From positions 290 to 64,289 of the forward strand of contig QMPV01000001.1 of NCBI GenBank assembly GCA_003648765.1: a stretch of 64,000 nt of DNA, given 5' to 3'. Below are positions 2,171 through 28,368 of this stretch, piece by piece. Each line of letters begins with the position of its first letter. The first letter of the stretch is position 1. Under the pieces are notes generated by a model. That model searched no databases and was not told where the DNA came from. It saw nothing but the letters and a program-made list of their open reading frames with translations. The DNA comes from Candidatus Aminicenantes bacterium (GTDB taxonomy: Bacteria > Acidobacteriota > Aminicenantia > Aminicenantales > Aminicenantaceae). Position numbers and translations under genes: made by a program.

Positions 2171-5100
2171 ATGATTAAGAAGAATTACCAAACTATTGAT
2201 GGCAACACAGCTGCTACCCATGTTGCCTATGCTTTTAGTGAGGTAGCTGCTATCTATCCCATTACTCCTTCTTCCCCGATGGGGGAATTAGCTGATGAAT
2301 GGGCTTCTCAAGGACGGAAAAACATTTTTGGGCAGGTGGTTGAAGTTATGGAGATGCAATCAGAAGCAGGGGCTGCTGGAGCTGTCCATGGCAGTTTGTC
2401 AGCTGGAGCTCTGACGACCACTTTTACAGCTTCCCAAGGATTGATGTTGATGTTGCCCAATATGCATAAGATAGCCGGAGAAATGTTGCCGACAGTCTTT
2501 CATGTCTCGGCTCGCTCGTTAGCCTGCCAGTCTTTATCTATTTTTGGGGATCATTCCGATGTTATGTCAGCTCGGAACACCGGCTTTGCCTTAATGGCGG
2601 CCGGTTCAGTCCAGGAGACTTTGGATTTAGCCATTGTCTCGCATTTGGCCACTCTGAAAGCTAGCGTTCCCTTTTTAAACTTTTTTGATGGCTTTCGAAC
2701 ATCGCATGAAATTCAGAAGGTCGATGTGGTTCCTTATTCAGTTATGGCTGAGCTGGCAGAGTGGCAATATGTTAAAGAATTTAAAGAGAGGGCTCTCCGT
2801 CCAGATAAACCCAAAGCAAAAGTAGGGGCGGAGAATCCAGATGTTTATTTTCAAGGCAGGGAAACGGTTAATCCTTTTTATGCCCGGACTCCGGCTATAG
2901 TTCAGGAATATATGGATAAATTAGCGGAGAAGATAGGGCGTCAGTATCATTTGTTTGATTATGTTGGAGCTCCCGATGCTGATAAAGTCATAATCGCCAT
3001 GGGGAGTGCCGTGGAAACAATTGAGGAAGCAGTTAATTATTTAACTGCCCGAGGAGAAAAGGTAGGAGCAGTTAAAGTTCGTTTATTCCGGCCCTTTTCG
3101 GTCGAGGCTTTTCGGAAGGTTTTACCCGCCACGGTAAAGAAAATAGCTGTTCTTGACCGGACTAAGGAGCCTGGGGCCATTGGGGAGCCTCTTTATCTGG
3201 ATGTAGTCGCCGCCCTGGCGGAGACACCGATTAAAATTATCGGCGGTCGTTATGGCCTTTCTTCCAAGGAATTTACTCCCACTATGGTTAAAGCAGTCTT
3301 TGATCATTTGGATGGTTCTTGTACGCATGGCTTTACTGTAGGAATTGAGGATGATGTTAGCGGTACTTCTATTCCTTTGGGACCAGAAATTGATGCCGAG
3401 CCGAAAGGCGTTATCCGTTGTAAATTCTGGGGATATGGCTCTGATGGAACAGTGGGTGCCAGTAAAAATTCCATTAAGATAATTGGTGACCATACAGATT
3501 ATTATGTTCAGGGATACTTTCAGTACGATTCTAAAAAGTCTGGTGGGGTAACTATTTCCCATCTCCGTTTTGGCAAGGAAAAAATCCAGTCCCAATATCT
3601 CTTGAATCACGTTGATTTTGTGGCTCTTCACAAATCTTCTTATATTGGTCGCTATGATATCCTGGAGGGTATTACCGAAGGCGGGGTTTTCCTGTTGAAT
3701 TCTACTTGGAAAGCTGAGGAAGTTTTCGAGAATCTGACTGAAGATATGCAGAAGACGATTATTGAGAAGAAAATAAAAGTTTACAATATTGACGCTTTGA
3801 AAATTGCTCAGGAGGTTGGTCTAGGGACTAGAATTAATACGGTTATGCAGGCAGCCTTTTTTAAAGTTTCGGGCGTTCTCCCTGAGGATGAAGCCATTAA
3901 GTTAATTAAAGAAGCTATTAAAAAGACTTTTTTGGCCAAAGGAGAAGATATAGTTCAGAAAAACTGGGCCGCAGTTGATCGGGCAGTAGAAGCTTTGGAA
4001 GAGGTACCTATTCCGGACAAAATCACCAAATCTGCTTCACCTCCACAGTTGCTTCCTGAAGACGCAGATGATTTTGCCCGCCAGATTATTGAGCCGATTA
4101 TGCGCTTTAAGGGAGACACGATACCTGTTTCTCATATGCCTTACGATGGCCAGATTCCTACCGGAACTACTCGTTTAGAGAAACGAGGAGTAGCGCCTTT
4201 TGTGCCTGAATGGTTGCCAGAGAAATGTATTCAGTGTAATCAATGTGCTTTGGTTTGTTCGCACGCCGCTATTCGGCCTAAACAGATTGACCCCGCTGAT
4301 CTCAAAGATGCGCCGGCGAGTTTTACTACCGTTAAATCGCGCACCCGCAATGACCGCAACCTTCAATACCGCCTGCAGGTCTTTATTGAGGATTGTGTGG
4401 GTTGTGCTAGTTGTGTGGAGTCGTGTCCGCTCAAGGAAAAAGCCTTAAGAATGATTCCTTTGGAAGAAGCTAGAAAAGCTGGGGAGAGGGAAAACGAAAT
4501 TTTCTTTGAAACCTTGCCCTATGATGTTCTCGATGGAGTCAATCCAGCCACAGTTAAAGGAAGTCAGTTTCTCCGGCCCTATTTTGAGTTCAGTGGTGCC
4601 TGTGGCGGATGCGGTGAAACTCCCTATATTAAATTAGCCACTCAGCTTTTCGGCGACCGAATGATTATCGCCAATGCCACTGGCTGTTCCTCAATTTACG
4701 GTGGAACTTTTCCTACGATTCCTTATTGTAAAAATGAGCTGGGTCAGGGTCCCGCTTGGGCCAATTCTCTTTTTGAAGACAATGCCGAATATGGTTTCGG
4801 CATGCGCTTGGCTGTAGATGCCAATCGTCGCAAACTGAAAGCATTGCTGGAAGAAGCCTTGGAATTGGAACTGGCTGAAGCTTTAAAAGAGGCCTTTCAA
4901 CGCTGCCTCTCTCTCTGGAAGAGGACTGATGATGAAGCTAAACAAGCTGCTCGACAAGCCCGAGAAATCCTCGCGGCCAGGCTTTCTCAAGAGAAAGCTA
5001 CAGTCCAGCCTCTTCTTCGCCAAATTCAGTATTTACAGGATTACCTTGTGGATAAAAGCATCTGGTGTATCGGTGGAGACGGTTGGGCCTATGATATTGG

Positions 5101-17066: not shown

Positions 17067-18449
17067 TTATTTTTCTTTGTTTAAAGGAGTAATTCTGACC
17101 ACAACATATTTGCCCTTGCTTAGATATTTCCCGGCTGCTCCCCGTAAATCAGAGGAGCTGATCTTTTTTATTAACTCTAAATAATTCCCTCTTTCTTTTT
17201 GCTGATTGAGGAGGTAATAGCGGACTAAAGCTCTGGCCAGAGTTAAGCCGTTTTCCTGAGCTTGATAAGTGCGAAAGCAAATTTGATTCTTTGCCTGCTG
17301 AAGGAAATCAAAAACAAAGAGTTGAGCTTCACCGTAATAGTCATCTGGGGAGAAATTCTGGCGGCGAAGTGTTTTTAGAAACCGGATTGTCTCTCGTTCA
17401 GCTCTTTTAGTATTTTTAGGGTCGAGAGTGAGGGTGATAATCATAGCCCCGCCGTAATAAAGTGAGGTATAGGTCATCGTAACTGTATAGGCTAATTCTC
17501 GACGTCCCCGGAGAACCTGATTGAGGAGCGGATTAAGACCGCGCCCGAGAATTTCAGTCAGAACGTCAATGGCATATTGGTCAGGATGGTTGAAATCGGG
17601 AGCTGAAAATCCCAAAAAAAGATAAGCCTGATTGACATCCAAGCTATGGCTGACCTCGATTTTTTCCTTCAAGGGAGGGGCAGGGGCAAGAGAAGGCGGC
17701 GAAAAGTGAGCATTACTGAGGGATGAAAATATTTGAGTTATTTTTTCTTGACTCCAGTTGAGATCGATTGGGCCAACTACAGCTAAAGCTGCATTTTGCG
17801 GGCAAAAAAAACGCTGGTAAAAGGCAGTTATTTTTTCTACAGTTATTTGAGCCAGGCTTTCTGGCGTTCCATAAATAGGCTGGCTGTAAGGATGGGAAGG
17901 AAAGAGATGTTGGAAAGTAAGGGAAGTTCCGTAGCGGAGAGGGTCGTCTTGGATAAAACTGATTTCTTCTAGGATAACCTGTTTTTCTTTTTCCAAGGAG
18001 GCCGGGTCAAAGGTTAACTCGAAAGCCAAGGCTTTAAGACACTTTAGAGCGAACAAGTAATTACCCGCCGGGAGGGTGATTTCAATAAGCATTAAATCCC
18101 GGCCGGTGTGAGCGTTATAATAGCCGCCTTTTTCTCGAATAGCTAAACTCAGATTTTTCCCGTTGAGTCGATGGGGATTGCGGAAAAGGAGGTAATGCTC
18201 TAAGAGATGCGTTAATCCAGAAGTTTCCCTGGTTTCATTTTTAGAACCTACATTGAAGCCCAGCACGAGATGAATTAAAGGTAGGTGGTTTTGCTGGAGG
18301 AGAGCTACCTGCAACCCATTTTCCAAAGTGAATTTCTCGGATTGGGTCGGGGCTGAAGTAGGCTTAATTGAAGAGAGAGAAAGAAGGGTTAAAACGCCAC
18401 TCACAACTAACAAGAAAAACAATTGATTATGATTTGAGGATTTAATCAT
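17067..18449 (-). CDS. M16 family zinc peptidase (catalytic, inverted zincin HxxEH)
   Basis: An HLLEH zinc-binding motif (GLTHLLEHYLLF). The likely start is the ATG at 18449 (MIKSS... with a hydrophobic signal/anchor), which overlaps the upstream K+ channel stop by 8 nt. The ORF-track start at 18596 is an upstream extension into the channel gene. Confidence 0.8.
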   Translation of the reverse strand: MIKSSNHNQLFFLLVVSGVLTLLSLSSIKPTSAPTQSEKFTLENGLQVALLQQNHLPLIHLVLGFNVGSKNETRETSGLTHLLEHYLLFRNPHRLNGKNLSLAIREKGGYYNAHTGRDLMLIEITLPAGNYLFALKCLKALAFELTFDPASLEKEKQVILEEISFIQDDPLRYGTSLTFQHLFPSHPYSQPIYGTPESLAQITVEKITAFYQRFFCPQNAALAVVGPIDLNWSQEKITQIFSSLSNAHFSPPSLAPAPPLKEKIEVSHSLDVNQAYLFLGFSAPDFNHPDQYAIDVLTEILGRGLNPLLNQVLRGRRELAYTVTMTYTSLYYGGAMIITLTLDPKNTKRAERETIRFLKTLRRQNFSPDDYYGEAQLFVFDFLQQAKNQICFRTYQAQENGLTLARALVRYYLLNQQKERGNYLELIKKISSSDLRGAAGKYLSKGKYVVVRITPLNKEK

Positions 18450-19443
18450 TATGTTCCGGATTAAGATAATTTTTTTGGAAAAGGTCGATTGATTGGGTAT
18501 CCCCCATGACCAACAGGGTGTCGCCGGGGTGGATCTTTGTTCCAGGATCGGGATTAAAGACAATATCTTGGCCGGGTTTTTTGATGGCCACGACAATTAC
18601 ATTCGCTTTCTTCCTTAAATCGCATTCGACAATTGTTTTATTGTTAATCCGGGCTTTTTTGCTAACCACAAATTCATCCATATAAAGAGATAATTCTTTT
18701 CGGCGAATAATCAGGTCCATAAAGTCAACTAAAGTTGGTCGGATTAATCCTTGGGCGATCTTTAAACCACTAAGTTTATAAGGATTAACTACACGGTTGG
18801 CTCCTATTTGGAGAATTTTTTTCTCACCTTCTTCATCTAAGGCTTTAGAGAGAACAAAAATAGATGGATTAAGGAGTTTGGCGGTGAAACTCAGGTAGAG
18901 ATTATTCGCATCACTGGGTAGAAGAGCGGCCAAAGCCTTAGCTTTTTTTACTTTGGCTTTAAGGAGGACTTCTTCTTGAGTGGCGTCACCCAGAATATAA
19001 AGACAGTTGTTTTGGTTAGCCAAGTCTTTTAGGGATTCTTCATTTTTTTCAATAACTACATAGGGCAGATTTTCTTCCTCTAGTCTTTCGCGGACAATTT
19101 TCCCCATGCGGCCATGGCCGCAAATTATATAATGATCCTTTAAATTCTGGATGTCTTTTTGCATTTTTTTTCTCCGAAAATATTGATGGAAGCCTCCTTC
19201 ATAAACGGCTTCGCCGATCTTTGTTAAGGCGAAGATAGCTGTGCCCACTCCACCGAGGATGATGAAGATAGTAAAGATTTGTCCTCCAGGGGTTAGAGGT
19301 TCTTTAACTTCCCGGAAACCCACCGTGGTAATGGTGATGATGGTCATATAAAGAGAATCGAGGAAAGCCAAGTTTTCAATGAGGTGATAGCCGATAGTAC
19401 CAATTAGAATCACCAGGAGGATTAAGACAATTGGCTTCCACAT
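18442..19443 (-). CDS. potassium channel with two-TM pore and RCK/TrkA-N plus TrkA-C domains
   Basis: 333 aa with an N-terminal TM-pore-TM containing a TTVGF selectivity-filter-like motif, then a Rossmann GHGRMG (GxGxxG) RCK domain and a TrkA-C-like C-terminus. Confidence 0.8.
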   Translation of the reverse strand: MWKPIVLILLVILIGTIGYHLIENLAFLDSLYMTIITITTVGFREVKEPLTPGGQIFTIFIILGGVGTAIFALTKIGEAVYEGGFHQYFRRKKMQKDIQNLKDHYIICGHGRMGKIVRERLEEENLPYVVIEKNEESLKDLANQNNCLYILGDATQEEVLLKAKVKKAKALAALLPSDANNLYLSFTAKLLNPSIFVLSKALDEEGEKKILQIGANRVVNPYKLSGLKIAQGLIRPTLVDFMDLIIRRKELSLYMDEFVVSKKARINNKTIVECDLRKKANVIVVAIKKPGQDIVFNPDPGTKIHPGDTLLVMGDTQSIDLFQKNYLNPEHND

Positions 19444-20003
19444 AGAAAATTGCTTAATGCTTCATTTTTATGTGGCCGATGATGGAAACCCCGAACGGTT
19501 TAATAATCAGGAAATCTGATCGACATCATAATCAGCCACCTCTGATTTCTTTTTAATATTACCGAAAAAAAAACCAACCGACAAGCGGTTATTACTTAAC
19601 CCAAAATTTCCCTAATAAATTAAATTAATTACAAGAAAGTCATTCTTTCTTAGAAAGGTAAGGGACTTTAAGGTAAAGCTGTAATTTTTATCGGCTTCAG
19701 TCTCCGGAGCAGTGGGGGAGGATAATTTTTTAGTGGCTTAATTTGGAGGAGAAAAGTTGGCTTAATTTGAGATTGTTTTGGGCAAGGCCAAAATTTTCCT
19801 GGAAGATTTTTATTTGATCCGAAAGTTGTTATCCAGCCCCTTTTAGTTAAGGCCGCTGTTTTGATGTTTTGGCTTTTCCAGGATCACCAGTCTTGATTTC
19901 TTAACCTTGAATCTCCAGCTTATTGAATTACCTTTTTCCCCTCAGTGAAATTATGTTAAAATCAAAAAGCAGTCTTTATAATCTTTATAATCAGAAGGGA
20001 GAT

Positions 20004-21461
20004 ATGAAAAAATTACCTCAAGCAAAGATTTTGATTGTTGATGATGAAGAGAACATCAGAAAAACACTTCGTATGGTTTTGGAATACGAGAATTTTGAGG
20101 TTTACGAGGCTTCTTCTGGAGAAGAAGCCTTGGAGAAAAGTGATGAGATTGTAGGTTTGGATTTGATTCTTTTGGATATTCGACTGCCCGGCAAAGATGG
20201 CTTGGAAGTGCTGGCCGAATTACAAGAAAGGCCCTACCGGCCGGAAGTGATTATGATTTCAGGCCATGGCACGATTCAATCAGCGGTTGAGGCCACCAAA
20301 CTGGGCGCCTACGATTTCTTAGAAAAGCCTCTCCACCGGGAAAGAATTCTACTGGCTATTCGCAATGCTCTGGACCATAAACGTTTAAAAAGAGAATATA
20401 TTGATTTAAGTCAAAAAGCAGCCAAACGCTATGAGCTAGTTGGGCGACATCCCTTAATGAAGAAATTGTGGGACCAAATCAAGAGAATTGCTCCAACTAA
20501 TTCAACTGTGCTTATTCAGGGAGAGAGCGGTACAGGGAAAGAATTGATTGCCCGGGCGATTCATCAACACAGCCATCGGGCTCAGAGGCCTTTTGTTCAA
20601 GTTAATTGTGCCGCTATTCCTGAGGAGTTAATTGAAAGTGAACTTTTTGGCCATGTTAAGGGAGCTTTCACTGGGGCCACGGAAAAAAAACTGGGCAAAT
20701 TTGAACTGGCTGACGGCGGAACTATTTTTCTTGATGAGGTGGGAGATATGAGTCTGAAGACCCAAGCTAAAGTTCTACGGGTCTTGGAAGAAGGTGAAGT
20801 GCAGAAAGTCGGCTCAACCAAGATTCAGAAAGTAGATGTTCGAGTCATCGCGGCCACCAACAAAGATTTATCTCAAGAAATAAAAGCAGGGCGTTTCCGG
20901 GAGGACCTTTATTTTCGTTTGAATGTAGTGCCTTTACAAGCGCCGCCTCTTCGGGAACACAAAGAAGATATTCCTTTATTGATTGATTATTTTATTCGTC
21001 TCTACGCCGAGGAGAATAATTTTAAACCCAAGAAATTTTCTCCCGAAGCGCTTGAAGTCATGATGAGATATCCGTGGAAAGGCAATGTCCGGGAGTTAAA
21101 GAATGTGGTGGAACGATTGCTTATCATGACTGAAGGGGATATAATAGAAAAAAGAGATTTGCCCGAACACATTCGGCAAGATGAGGAAGTTTTTCTGCCG
21201 GAAATAAGTCAGGTTAAGTCACTTAAAGAATTTCGGGAAGTTGCTGAGAAGATGTTCATTTTGGCTAAGCTGGAAGAGAATGAGTGGAATATTAGTCGAA
21301 CAGCTCGAGCTATTGGAACTCCACGGAGTAATCTTTACAAAAAGCTGGAACAATATCATATTAAGATAAAGGCTGGAGTAGGCGAGGCGGTTGCTCCACC
21401 GGAGCCCAAGGCTGACGGTGGGGAGGAAAGTCCGAACTCCACAGAGCAGGATGGTCGCTAA
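20004..21461 (+). CDS. sigma-54-dependent response regulator (NtrC family: receiver + AAA+ + Fis-type HTH)
   Basis: The receiver domain (KILIVDDEENIRKTL...LDIRLPGKDG), Walker A GESGTGKE, the sigma-54 contact motif GAFTGA and a C-terminal HTH are all present. The preferred start is the ATG at 20004, with a GAAGGGAG RBS. The last ~30 codons read through into rnpB. Confidence 0.9.
   Translation: MKKLPQAKILIVDDEENIRKTLRMVLEYENFEVYEASSGEEALEKSDEIVGLDLILLDIRLPGKDGLEVLAELQERPYRPEVIMISGHGTIQSAVEATKLGAYDFLEKPLHRERILLAIRNALDHKRLKREYIDLSQKAAKRYELVGRHPLMKKLWDQIKRIAPTNSTVLIQGESGTGKELIARAIHQHSHRAQRPFVQVNCAAIPEELIESELFGHVKGAFTGATEKKLGKFELADGGTIFLDEVGDMSLKTQAKVLRVLEEGEVQKVGSTKIQKVDVRVIAATNKDLSQEIKAGRFREDLYFRLNVVPLQAPPLREHKEDIPLLIDYFIRLYAEENNFKPKKFSPEALEVMMRYPWKGNVRELKNVVERLLIMTEGDIIEKRDLPEHIRQDEEVFLPEISQVKSLKEFREVAEKMFILAKLEENEWNISRTARAIGTPRSNLYKKLEQYHIKIKAGVGEAVAPPEPKADGGEESPNSTEQDGR
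21334..21362 (+). promoter_or_regulatory. candidate rnpB promoter embedded in the regulator 3' coding region (TTTACA-17nt-CATATT)
   Basis: TTTACA at 21334-21339 and CATATT at 21357-21362 place +1 at about 21369-21371. This coincides with the predicted 5' end of the RNase P RNA P1 stem. Confidence 0.3.
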
Positions 21462-21757
21462 CAGCGACTCCGAGCAATCGGAGGAAAGTGCCACAGAGAG
21501 TAGACCGCCCTGTGGGTGTGGTCAAGACCCACTCACGGAGCAAGGGTGAAAGGGTGAGGTAAGAGCTCACCGCTCTGGTGGTGACACCAGAGGCAGGGCA
21601 AACCCCATCCGGAGCAAGGCCAAATCGGCCCCCGAAGAGATAGCTCGTCTCAGGGGGCGGGTAGGCCGCTTGACCCCTTGAGTAATCAAGGGGCGAGATA
21701 AATAACCGCCCCTGCCCTCGGGCAGGAACAGAATTCGGCTTACGTCCTGCTCCAGCC
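21371..21757 (+). ncRNA. rnpB: RNase P RNA (bacterial type A)
   Basis: Universally conserved blocks are all present: GGAGGAAAGTCCGAACTCCACAGAGCA (P4 5' strand), AAGGGTGAAAGGGTGAGGTAAGAGCTCACC (P10-P11/J11-12), CCGGAGCAAGGCCAAATCGG, GGGTAGGCCGCTTGA and ACAGAATTCGGCTTA (P4 3' strand). The P1 stem pairs 5' GGCTGGAGTAGGCG with 3' CGTCCTGCTCCAGCC. Confidence 0.85.
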
Positions 21758-21771
21758 TTTTCTTTTTCTTT

Positions 21772-21801
21772 CTTCTTCTTCTTCTTCTTCTTCTTCTTCT
21801 T
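21772..21801. repeat. (CTT)10 trinucleotide microsatellite, with imperfect CTT units extending back to 21761
   Basis: Ten perfect tandem CTT units are read directly, immediately 3' of rnpB and convergent with the nuoN 3' end. Confidence 0.9.
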
Positions 21802-21949
21802 CTTCCTTCAATTAGGCCTAGGGGTTGGCCAGACTGTTTTTGGGAAGAGGTGGAGCTTTCCCTAATTCAGCTGGAAGGAGAAGCTTAGAGGATAATCAAT
21901 TGAGAAAATATTTTAATTCGGGGGAGGAAAAGAAGATGATGTGGCTCAA

Positions 21950-23401
21950 TTAAGGTAAAAGGCTAAGGAGAGTGGGAAGAGAAGCCACTGCTTGGCGGAT
22001 CCAGATAAGGATATTTCCTGGGAAAAGCCCCAGTTGAAGGACTCCATAGAGACAAAGAAAAAGAACTAAATAAAGAGCTGGATTGTCGCTTCGAATGATC
22101 ACGGCTGAAGTAGGTTCGCGCATATACATATACACCACAACTCGGAGATAGTAATAAACTGAGATAAGGCTGGCTAAGACAGCGATAATGACTAAGGAAG
22201 TTAATCCTCGTTGGACAGCTGAGGCAAAAACATAGAATTTAGCTAAGAAGCCCCCTGTGGGAGGAAAACCAGCCAGAGAGATTAAGAAGATGGTCATCAT
22301 AGCCCCAATCCAGGGGTATTGGAAACCTATACCTTTAAAGTCTTCCAACTGGAGATATTCTTGTCTCTCCCGGCTGAGGGCAATCACTGCGGCAAAAGCA
22401 CCAATGTTCATAAAAAGATACACAGCTAAATAAAAAAGCAGGCTACCATAATCCTGGGCGAGGATGGCCACTAGTAGATAACCGGCGTGGGCGATGCTGG
22501 AATAAGCGAGAAGACGCTTAATGTTGGTTTGCCGAAGGGCCACCAGATTAGCCACGACCATAGTAGCGACGGCTAGGACCCAGAGAGCCCAGAAAATGGT
22601 GGTCCGGTTAAAGGCGGTTGGCCAAAAGAGGTAAAAGACCCGAATAAGCACGGCAAAGCCCACAGCTTTAGGGCCGATGGAGAAAAAGGCGGTGATAGGA
22701 GTTGGTGAGCCTTCATAAACATCAGGCGTCCACATATGAAAAGGCACAATGGCAATCTTAAAACCGAAACCCACCAGGAGTAATCCCAGACCCACCCAAC
22801 CTAGGACCAGTGAAGGAGAATCGGCTTTAAATCCTTGAATAATTCCGTGGATTTGGGTGGTGTGGGCAAAGCCGAAAAGAAAAGCCAGACCCAGCACTAG
22901 CAGGGCGGAAGCAAAACTCCCCAGGAGGAAATATTTAGCCGCTGCTTCTGAAGATTTCTGATCACGAATTTTCAATCCGGCCAGAGCATAGCTGGAGGTG
23001 GACAGCACTTCTAGGCCGAGAAAGATGACGATTAAATCATAAGAAGAAACCATAATCAACAGGCCAGAGAGAGCAAAAAGAAGCAGCCCGTAATATTCCC
23101 CAAAGTTCATTTCCTGGAATTCGATGTACTTGAGGGAGATTAAAATAACTAAGGCTGTGGCCACCAGAAAGATATAGTGAAAAGCTACGGCTAAATTGTC
23201 AAAAATTAGGAAATTATGAAAAGAAGTTAAATTTTGATTCCAGAGCCGGGAGTTAAAAAAACCGCAAGCAATGAGGGCTATTAAACTCAAATATCCCAAA
23301 TAATTTCGGTTAGAACGTCGGAAAAATACCTCCAGCAGGATAACTACCAGGGCGGCTCCGACGATAGTCAACAAGGGTAGTAGAGGTCGGAGAATGGTCA
23401 T
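21950..23401 (-). CDS. nuoN: NADH-quinone oxidoreductase subunit N
   Basis: 483 aa and polytopic. It is the last gene of the nuoJKLMN block, and the antiporter-like NuoN/ND2 pattern is present. Confidence 0.88.
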   Translation of the reverse strand: MTILRPLLPLLTIVGAALVVILLEVFFRRSNRNYLGYLSLIALIACGFFNSRLWNQNLTSFHNFLIFDNLAVAFHYIFLVATALVILISLKYIEFQEMNFGEYYGLLLFALSGLLIMVSSYDLIVIFLGLEVLSTSSYALAGLKIRDQKSSEAAAKYFLLGSFASALLVLGLAFLFGFAHTTQIHGIIQGFKADSPSLVLGWVGLGLLLVGFGFKIAIVPFHMWTPDVYEGSPTPITAFFSIGPKAVGFAVLIRVFYLFWPTAFNRTTIFWALWVLAVATMVVANLVALRQTNIKRLLAYSSIAHAGYLLVAILAQDYGSLLFYLAVYLFMNIGAFAAVIALSRERQEYLQLEDFKGIGFQYPWIGAMMTIFLISLAGFPPTGGFLAKFYVFASAVQRGLTSLVIIAVLASLISVYYYLRVVVYMYMREPTSAVIIRSDNPALYLVLFLCLYGVLQLGLFPGNILIWIRQAVASLPTLLSLLP

Positions 23402-24990
23402 GGCTGCTTTGCCTCCTGGGTTTCTTCAGAAGCCTTCTCGGCCGGCAACATTTTGACCACAAATTGTTTTGAAGTGGCAGAGATAAGGTCTGGTCGTTGA
23501 AAATAGCCTTCATGTTTTTCAATCTGAGTCAGGAGTAATTCGACTGAAGGTTTCATTTTAGCTAGAAAGGTTCGTGGATAGACCCCCATCCAGACCATCA
23601 TAATGACAATTGGTGTTAGGTAGAGGATTTCTCGCAGATTTAGGTCAGGGAAAGTTTTTATTTTTTTCTGGGTTATCGGTCCCTGCATGACTCGCTGGAA
23701 CATCCAGAGGAGGTAACCAGCGGCTAAAATAACGGTGCTTACCGCCAAGATGGCGTACAGAGAATTGGATTGAAAAACACCATAAAGACAGAGAATTTCG
23801 CCAATAAAGCCATTTAGTCCTGGTAACCCTACTGAAGATAAAACACAGACAAGGAAAAAGGCGGCGAAGATAGGCATTTGTCGGCTGACTCCCCCGTAGT
23901 CTTTAATGAGTCGGGTATGGGCTCGCTCATAAAGAATGCCCACACACAAGAAGAGAGCGCCGGTGCTTAAGCCGTGGTTAAGCATTTGATAAATGGCTCC
24001 CTCAATCGAAGTCTGATTGAGAGCAAAAACGGCCAGCATGATCAGGCCCATATGGCTGACACTGGAATAGGCCACCAGAGATTTAACATCTTTTTGAATG
24101 AGAGCCATCAGGCCTCCATAAATGATGCCGATGATAGCCAGCACAGAAAGCAAGGGAATAAATTTGACTACTGCCTGGGGAAAAAGCGGCAGGGCAAAGC
24201 GGAGAAAACCATAAGTCCCCATTTTTAAAAGGACGGCCGCCAGGATGACTGACCCAGCTGTGGGTGCTTCGACATGAGCATCAGGGAGCCAGGTATGGAA
24301 GGGAAACATGGGGACTTTAATGGCAAAAGCCAGAGCAAAGGCCAAGAACAGCCATATTTGAAGCTGGGGATTTAAGACGATTTTATACATATCGAAGATT
24401 TCAAATGAAGCTGTGCCTGTAGCCTTGAGATGAAGAGAGTAAAGCATAAAAATAGCCACCAGCATTAACAGGCTGCCAAACATAGTAAAAAGGACGAATT
24501 TGACGGTGGCGTAAATCCGGCGAGGGCCTCCCCAGACACCGATCAGGAAATACATCGGGATAAGCATAGCTTCCCAGAAGACATAAAAAAGAAAAAGATT
24601 TAAGGAGACAAAAACACCGATGATGCCCGTTTCCAACAGCAGGAGAAAAAAGAGATATTCTTTATGGCGCTTTTGAATATAGTTCCAGGAGGAAAGCACG
24701 GCGATGGGCATCAGGAAAGTGGTTAAAATCACCAGAAACAGACTTATGCCATCAACTCCCAGATGGTAATTAATGCCTCTCCCCAGCCAAGCTGATTTTT
24801 CCACAAATTGCGGTAAGCCCGTGCTCTCATCGAAGCGGAAATAGAGAATTAAGGAAAGGAAAAAATTAAGCAGCGTAAAAATCAAGGCGGTTAGGAATAA
24901 TAATTGTTTTCTTTCCCGAGGGAGAAAGATAATTAACAAGGCACCAACTAAGGGCAGGAAGGTTAAGATGCTTAAAATTTGTCCACTCAT
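23398..24990 (-). CDS. nuoM: NADH-quinone oxidoreductase subunit M
   Basis: 530 aa with antiporter-like NuoM/ND4 conservation (WLPDAHVEAPTAGSVILA). It overlaps nuoN by 4 nt. Confidence 0.9.
   Translation of the reverse strand: MSGQILSILTFLPLVGALLIIFLPRERKQLLFLTALIFTLLNFFLSLILYFRFDESTGLPQFVEKSAWLGRGINYHLGVDGISLFLVILTTFLMPIAVLSSWNYIQKRHKEYLFFLLLLETGIIGVFVSLNLFLFYVFWEAMLIPMYFLIGVWGGPRRIYATVKFVLFTMFGSLLMLVAIFMLYSLHLKATGTASFEIFDMYKIVLNPQLQIWLFLAFALAFAIKVPMFPFHTWLPDAHVEAPTAGSVILAAVLLKMGTYGFLRFALPLFPQAVVKFIPLLSVLAIIGIIYGGLMALIQKDVKSLVAYSSVSHMGLIMLAVFALNQTSIEGAIYQMLNHGLSTGALFLCVGILYERAHTRLIKDYGGVSRQMPIFAAFFLVCVLSSVGLPGLNGFIGEILCLYGVFQSNSLYAILAVSTVILAAGYLLWMFQRVMQGPITQKKIKTFPDLNLREILYLTPIVIMMVWMGVYPRTFLAKMKPSVELLLTQIEKHEGYFQRPDLISATSKQFVVKMLPAEKASEETQEAKQP

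Positions 24991-28291: not shown

Positions 28292-28368
<77 letters not shown>

Follow-up and report, generated by a model that had tools for sequence, protein, structure and literature searches.

How can the gene for an essential ribozyme and the end of a protein-coding gene occupy the same DNA on the same strand, and which of the two products sets the sequence? The question is raised by a 64,000-nucleotide (nt) stretch of contig QMPV01000001.1 from a Candidatus Aminicenantes bacterium, called here the window, in which rnpB, the gene for RNase P RNA, starts inside the open reading frame (ORF) of a sigma-54-dependent response regulator. Throughout the sampled clade, a quarter of the ribozyme gene, one strand of the P4 catalytic core included, also forms the end of a transcription-factor ORF. 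The overlap is conserved throughout that clade, it is derived, and the shared sequence carries the constraint of an RNA rather than that of a protein.

An RNase P RNA gene inside a regulator reading frame

When the whole window was searched with cmscan, one RNase P RNA was found, a match to RF00010 (RNaseP_bact_a) at 21375-21757 on the forward strand with a score of 301.2 bits (E = 1.4e-97; gathering score, 100), covering model positions 1-367 of 367 without truncation. Within clan CL00002 the highest score went to type A, and one weaker overlapping match from the clan was dropped. Immediately upstream, GGCT at 21371-21374 is complementary to AGCC at 21754-21757. Because these four extra P1 pairs also covary in relatives, the 5' end of rnpB was placed at 21371, and the gene extends from 21371 to 21757. 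An initial annotation, made from the letters of the DNA, had proposed an rnpB overlapping the 3' end of the regulator gene with its 5' end at about 21371 and had suggested a covariance-model scan as the check; the score lies above threshold, and the model boundaries together with the four-pair extension of P1 confirm the proposal. The conserved core elements GAGGAAAGUCCG and ACAGAAUUCGGCUUA are present, and the catalytic-core P4 strands, GAGGAAAGUCC... at 21423-21434 and ACAGAA..CGGCUUA at 21728-21742, are invariant across 13-15 clade sequences. The boundary is further marked by a shift in composition, with a GC content of 61.5% in rnpB versus 42.4% in the body of the coding sequence (CDS). 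In every testable feature of RF00010 this is an ordinary RNase P RNA, and pre-tRNA cleavage activity is predicted for it. Terminator-like matches on the minus strand at 21706-21733 were rejected as a terminator, being an internal hairpin of rnpB.

The regulator ORF, of the NtrX/NtrC type by ORF list, Pfam and motifs, occupies 20004-21461 on the forward strand. It starts at an ATG (20004) in a good Shine-Dalgarno context, AGAAGGGAGATATG, and the same start is used in orthologues. Its 485-residue product is composed of a REC domain, an AAA+ sigma-54 interaction domain with GAFTGA, an AAA lid, and a Fis-type helix-turn-helix (HTH). The corresponding Pfam matches were all above cut-off: Response_reg (PF00072) at residues 9-119, Sigma54_activat (PF00158) at 145-311, AAA_lid_14 (PF25601) at 317-394, and HTH_8 (PF02954) at 411-451 (21234-21356). 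The Walker A motif, GESGTGKE, is at residues 173-180, and the GAFTGA sigma-54 contact loop is at residues 220-225 (20661-20678). In all testable features of the family, the protein is a sigma-54 enhancer-binding response regulator. The name NtrX attached to its orthologues is a JGI source label, and no histidine kinase gene adjoined the regulator gene in most of the clade loci examined.

As the initial annotation had read it, the ORF remains open until the TAA at 21459-21461, and 91 nt (21371-21461) are therefore shared by the two genes, or 87 nt if counted from the start of the covariance-model match. They begin at the third base of codon 456 and take in every codon up to 485 as well as the stop. 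HTH_8 ends at residue 451 of 485, and the C-terminal tail of about 30 residues beyond it is encoded by rnpB. The tail, AGVGEAVAPPEPKADGGEESPNSTEQDGR, is exactly as first quoted; it is rich in Gly, Glu, Pro, and Ala and contains the tryptic peptides AGVGEAVAPPEPK and ADGGEESPNSTEQDGR (clade consensus, AGVGEVVAPSS...). On the RNA side, the shared segment holds the 5' strands of P1 and P2, the entire P3 hairpin (21394-21423 by the cmscan structure line), the J3/4-P4 core, and the beginning of the helices that follow. The universally conserved 5' side of P4 (21423-21434) is read as codons for G-E-E-S-P and is invariant at all codon positions in 15 sequences. The regulator TAA sits within a GCUAAC hairpin loop (21457-21462 by the cmscan alignment; Rfam consensus, GgUAACgc), which we take to be L8 from type-A architecture, and this TAA was invariant in 15/15 clade sequences.

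The rnpB region of the window also contains spurious ORFs of 52 and 69 amino acids, at 21391-21549 on the plus strand and 21361-21570 on the minus strand, respectively.

Distribution and origin of the overlap

Orthologues of the regulator retrieved by protein search were 72-99% identical, and 81/120 among the matches listed were exactly 485 amino acids long. Their tails take the form ...IKIKAGVGEVVAPSS, a variable stretch, and EGEESPNSxGQDGR. The clade name, Candidatus Aminicenantes/Aminicenantales, was taken from the NCBI source labels of these orthologues. At the DNA level, each of the 16 Aminicenantes loci that extended far enough downstream had rnpB at the same offset, as located by RF00010 in L001-L004, L081-L083, L162-L166, and L168-L170 and by nhmmer in L084. 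Full-length clade loci scored 285-311 bits. With the same overlap present in more than 100 database orthologues and independent assemblies, it is not an assembly artefact.

Outside the clade, the gene pair also occurs in Vicinamibacteria-type Acidobacteriota, where rnpB lies downstream of the same regulator (51-63% identity) and in the same orientation. In that group, the protein ends '...LYKKLEQYGISQExDG*', 6-7 residues past the HTH, and rnpB begins 13-187 nt after the stop. Since these relatives keep both the stop and the spacer, both were ancestral and were lost in the Aminicenantes lineage. In Gemmatimonadota, Terriglobia, Bryobacterales, and Thermoanaerobaculia relatives, nhmmer found no rnpB beside the regulator, and the synteny is therefore not phylum-wide.

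Two loci were set aside. In L167 (CP070825.1), a 'complete chromosome' metagenome-assembled genome of Candidatus Aminicenantes, the CDS appeared to be truncated at rnpB (P0127, 465 amino acids, NCBI 'partial'). A gap of 100 N at 3897-3996 begins inside P3 of rnpB, which explains both the partial regulator and the lack of a detectable rnpB at the locus; the truncation was discarded as an assembly gap. In the outgroup locus L019 (4350-4462), an extra base after '...YKIS' carries the ORF 50 nt into rnpB. Removing this base restores the usual '...ISQERDG*' ending, and the locus was not counted as an independent overlap; the frameshift may be a long-read sequencing error, or else it is very recent and shows how such an overlap can come about. 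Three regulator fragments (P0253, P0260, and P0265) end '...LYKKLEQYGIKQEVDG*', a short outgroup-type end with the Lys of the Aminicenantes 'YGIK...' form, and their lineage might be close to the point of stop loss. Several outgroup spacers contain short tandem repeats, namely GATTGCC/GATTGCA heptamers in L010 (4369-4515), CAATGTT-like repeats in L007 (4375-4470), and GAATGAT-like repeats in L006 (4369-4474), which could be binding sites or slippage products.

RNA and protein constraint on the shared sequence

Codon-position entropies were computed over 15 clade sequences. The CDS body gave 0.52/0.27/1.40 for positions 1/2/3, a classic coding pattern, and codons 440-452 at the end of the HTH gave 0.41/0.18/1.19; beyond the HTH, the ORF no longer shows a protein-coding signature. 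In the P1-P2 codons (0.12/0.40/0.41) the third position showed no excess, and from P4 onward (0.09/0.30/0.21) third positions were frozen. The P3 codons (1.16/0.91/1.57) varied freely at all positions, stop codons included, and the P3 loop is the sole part of the tail that evolves freely. Covariation was counted for P1, P2, and P3, the helices whose 5' strands lie inside the ORF. Here, 95.9% of cells were paired and 15/28 pairs showed changes on both sides (5/9 in P3); 0/500 shuffles reached the observed value, and slid registers were 41-63% paired. The V/A and G/D replacements in the tail are such compensatory RNA changes showing through at the protein level.

A census of tail ends was obtained from an unbiased ranking made with a tail-less query, in which 118 orthologue tails were classifiable. 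The stop lay in the UAAC loop in 91/118, in the P3 loop in 17/118, and directly after GEESPNS in 10/118. The latter position is a variable triplet (ACA, AAA, AGA, AUA, UGA, or UAA), and the P3-loop stops had several clearly independent origins. Early stops were also present in the DNA loci, in the P3 loop in L003, L084, L168, and L170 and after GEESPNS in L165 and L169. The tail is thus truncated at two earlier points in 23% of orthologues (14% by P3-loop stops and 10% at the variable triplet). By our own estimate these frequencies are about those expected for unconstrained codons, and hence the distal tail is neither needed nor harmful. The suggestion in the initial annotation that the protein needs only its part up to the Fis-type HTH agrees with these 27/118 early stops in the clade and with the stop 6-7 residues after the HTH in the outgroup.

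Conservation of the tail among orthologues had been named in advance as a finding that would refute that annotation. The tail is in fact conserved in the Aminicenantes, yet the pattern follows the RNA, so that conservation as such proved an ill-posed criterion. The P3 loop varies freely, P4 is fixed at every codon position, and the helices covary; the conservation is RNA driven. Judged by these patterns, the sequence of the tail is dictated by the ribozyme and not by protein function, the tail itself being a tolerated passenger.

The reading frame, in turn, appeared to be kept. Among 133 proteins reading through P3, six length values were observed, connected by at least 10 changes by parsimony, all of whole codons, with one P3 length common to 112/133. 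P4 was read in another frame in 0/118 orthologues of the unbiased ranking. In DNA, P3 measured 29, 23, or 20 nt in 15/15 clade loci, all 2 mod 3, versus 17-112 nt in all three mod-3 classes for the untranslated outgroup P3. The other two frames would mostly run 17-51 codons past P4, compared with 12 in the actual frame. Because P3 length changed at least 5-10 times overall, and always by whole codons, the data give moderate support to the view that ribosomes translating the regulator mRNA do enter rnpB and that selection acts against long run-ons.

Two other accounts of these data were weighed. The tail could be a functional, selected part of the regulator, e.g., an acidic disordered extension modulating DNA binding, which would make the 91 nt truly dual coding. 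Its presence in all sampled clade members and the frame always kept across P3 would fit, and a Gly/Glu/Pro/Ala-rich composition is typical of tolerated or regulatory disordered tails. Such a role nevertheless seems very unlikely, given third codon positions no freer than the first and second, replacements that follow compensatory RNA changes, frequent truncation, and outgroup orthologues with no tail at all. More weight is due to an account in which the frame is kept through common descent, a favored size of P3, and triplet-biased slippage, so that the ORF extension would be biologically inconsequential and tail translation irrelevant or rare. The single P3 length in most proteins is compatible with this, as are P3 stems made of TTC/GAA-like repeats (CUUCUUC/GAAGAAG-like) in a gene adjoined by a TTC microsatellite, and loci with an early P3 stop still keep the downstream sequence in frame. 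Set against it are six length states with at least 10 changes, all multiples of 3, the lack of any out-of-frame case in 118, and the outgroup P3 lengths in all residue classes; moreover, hairpin changes by base pairs would favor steps of 2 nt, not 3. We consider this account possible but less likely than not.

Expression of the overlapping genes and comparison with known systems

Since the 5' end of rnpB lies within the regulator ORF, any promoter of its own must lie there too. The initial annotation had placed one at 21334-21362 on the forward strand, consisting of TTTACA (21334-21339), a 17-nt spacer, and CATATT (21357-21362), with 9/12 consensus matches and a +1 that would fall within 1-2 nt of 21371. 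The hexamers are present as described; a promoter role for them was not established. A consensus promoter scan of the region returned 3 sites, and shuffled sequence gave an expectation of 3.4; a match of this kind is therefore no better than chance. CATATT is particular to the window, with most relatives having TATGGTATAAAG instead.

Constraint at the nucleotide level was found in the AT-rich block directly before P1, TAT CAT ATT AAG ATA AA (21354-21370, forward strand, with ATAAAGATAA). In most relatives it reads TAT GGT ATA AAG ATA AA, and the conserved form is TAT-GGN-ATA-AAR-ATA-A. ATA encodes Ile453 in 11/15 sequences and Ile455 in 14/15, and ATC occurs at neither codon, as against 20% ATA in the gene body and at most 7/15 in other invariant Ile columns. 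Tyr451 is encoded by TAT in 14/14 sequences with Tyr at this position, L081 having TTT (Phe). A TGnTATAAA element ends 6 nt before P1 in 7/15 clade sequences, and others have TAAGAT, TAAAAT, or AAAAAT 3 nt before P1. Outgroup spacers contain TAGAAT, GAATAT, or GATAAT 6-12 nt before rnpB, and with spacers as short as 13-32 nt the corresponding -35 would already lie inside the CDS. The block is a candidate -10 or extended -10 element, or else a processing site on a co-transcript. A promoter for rnpB within the last codons of the regulator is accordingly best described as plausible, probably ancestral, and unproven.

The explanation that we favor, with considerable confidence, is a derived clade-wide overlap with an RNA-dictated passenger tail, in which rnpB is present on a co-transcript and also has a start of its own. 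The regulator stop and the short spacer before rnpB were lost in the ancestor shared by the sampled Candidatus Aminicenantes. The ORF now runs through the AT-rich region and P1, P2, P3, and P4 to the first in-frame stop allowed by the RNA, usually the UAA of the invariant UAAC loop and otherwise a stop in the P3 loop or at the variable triplet after P4. With its stop inside rnpB, the regulator mRNA must reach into that gene; with no terminator until after P1, it probably covers the whole of rnpB, with its 3' end in the T-rich tract that follows the P1 3' strand (21758-21805, forward strand), a possible region for the transcript 3' end. A T-run follows P1 in about 8/13 relatives. Ribosomes would translate the disordered Gly/Glu/Pro/Ala-rich tail and stop in a loop kept invariant by the RNA, and most RNase P RNA would probably come from its own start at or near 21371, directed by the -10-like AT-rich element in codons 451-456.

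Alternatively, rnpB might be promoterless and made by processing of the regulator-rnpB co-transcript, with the AU-rich AUAAAGAUAAAG before P1 serving as an RNase E/Y-type cleavage site. The mRNA must enter rnpB in any case, the consensus match is at chance level, the -35 is unconserved, and -10 scores are mediocre; in addition, the pair is adjacent and co-oriented across two Acidobacteriota classes, with spacers down to 13-23 nt. We think exclusive processing unlikely all the same, as outgroup spacers hold good -10 hexamers at the right distance and TGnTATAAA stands exactly 6 nt before P1 in nearly half of the clade members. RNase P RNA is normally abundant and stable and transcription-factor mRNAs are scarce, and transcription of M1 RNA in Escherichia coli initiates directly at the mature 5' end. 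A further reading, in which the regulator is made solely from the co-transcript and 5' maturation of rnpB cuts the mRNA upstream of its stop, leaving a non-stop message for trans-translation, strikes us as highly improbable. If it were true, a given transcript could serve either regulator output or ribozyme maturation but not both, and selection for this coupling would explain both the long-kept adjacency in Acidobacteriota and the strict frame through P3.

Several points weigh against the favored explanation. The start of rnpB transcription, the co-transcription, and the translation of the tail are all deduced from sequence, and about 16 clade DNA loci were examined. In relatives, the Leu and Tyr codons covering the proposed -35 vary freely at synonymous sites (CTT, CTC, TTG, and CTG; TAC and TAT), and the -10-like scores upstream of P1 lie at the 60th-100th percentile within each gene, with a median at about the 84th. 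The frame argument rests on non-independent protein clusters and assumes indel lengths uniform mod 3. Finally, a bait search for out-of-frame readers of rnpB picked out three, all short gene fragments (P0152, P0153, and P0154), the search having yielded short proteins alone and thus no census of full-length regulators. P0152 was rejected as out-of-frame evidence, as it derives from an indel-ridden contig in which the regulator is split over three frames. Translations of rnpB in other frames, e.g., ...RGRKVRTPQGRMVANSDSERSEESATEN..., made up 68/114 of the bait-search matches, among them database proteins such as P0160 and P0198.

The surrounding genes form a conserved clade neighborhood, seen in the window at 18442-24990 and in L081 and L162-L170. 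Two M16 peptidase genes and a TrkA-type K+ channel gene on the minus strand precede the regulator and rnpB on the plus strand, followed by nuoN-nuoM-nuoL-nuoK on the minus strand. The nuo genes converge on rnpB, nuoN ending at 21950, and a TTC microsatellite lies in the convergent gap. This repeat, (TTC)15 at 21760-21805 (TRF: period 3, 15 copies), begins 3 nt past the rnpB 3' end, where the T-rich tract runs into it. In L171, the regulator and rnpB are 99.6% identical to those of the window, with 7/1754 positions different and 0 of these within rnpB, and the repeat is 6 units (18 nt) shorter; the repeat is therefore hypervariable between near-identical strains. The nearest other relative, L162, has merely a short T/TTC tract at this position. 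A tRNA gene follows rnpB by 90-150 nt in L002, L082, and L083, and the one further Rfam/ARAGORN match examined in the window is a tRNA-Met (anticodon CAT) at 28292-28368.

No description of this regulator-rnpB overlap was found in the searchable literature, which is absence of evidence only. The genes themselves are of ordinary kinds, and what is new is that, across a whole clade, an essential ribozyme gene overlaps a CDS on the same strand. The overlap offers a natural setting in which constraint on the RNA and constraint on the protein can be cleanly told apart; the RNA wins completely while the frame still seems to be policed. It also poses the question of how the same DNA, with no terminator between the two genes, yields both a scarce regulator mRNA and an abundant stable RNA. 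For annotation it is a trap, in that public protein sets hold the 485-residue ORF with its rnpB tail and dozens of spurious rnpB-derived 'hypothetical proteins'.

Measured against known systems, the Aminicenantes RNA shares with E. coli M1 RNA and the RF00010 family the full-length match, the core elements, and a covariation-supported P1-P3, and differs from RF00010 RNAs in that its first 91 nt, including the 5' strand of P4, lie inside a same-strand ORF. Likewise, the regulator has the REC domain, the AAA+ domain with GAFTGA, and the Fis-type HTH of NtrC/NtrX regulators; compared with its nearest non-Aminicenantes orthologues, it carries an extra rnpB-encoded C-terminal extension. MicL within cutC and DapZ within dapB are small RNAs whose promoters lie within the 3' end of the preceding CDS, and the likeness lies in a same-strand non-coding RNA that has its promoter, its 5' part, or both within the last stretch of a CDS. 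However, those are regulatory RNAs overlapping 3' ends or 3' untranslated regions, whereas the RNA described here is an essential ribozyme whose core is read as codons and whose start is predicted from sequence. SgrS/SgrT, RNAIII/delta-haemolysin, and tmRNA are dual-function RNAs that also encode a peptide, and in them, too, one stretch of RNA serves as both structured RNA and codons. Their peptides are functional and have their own start codon, whereas the peptide encoded in the Aminicenantes rnpB is the run-on of an upstream gene without protein-level selection.

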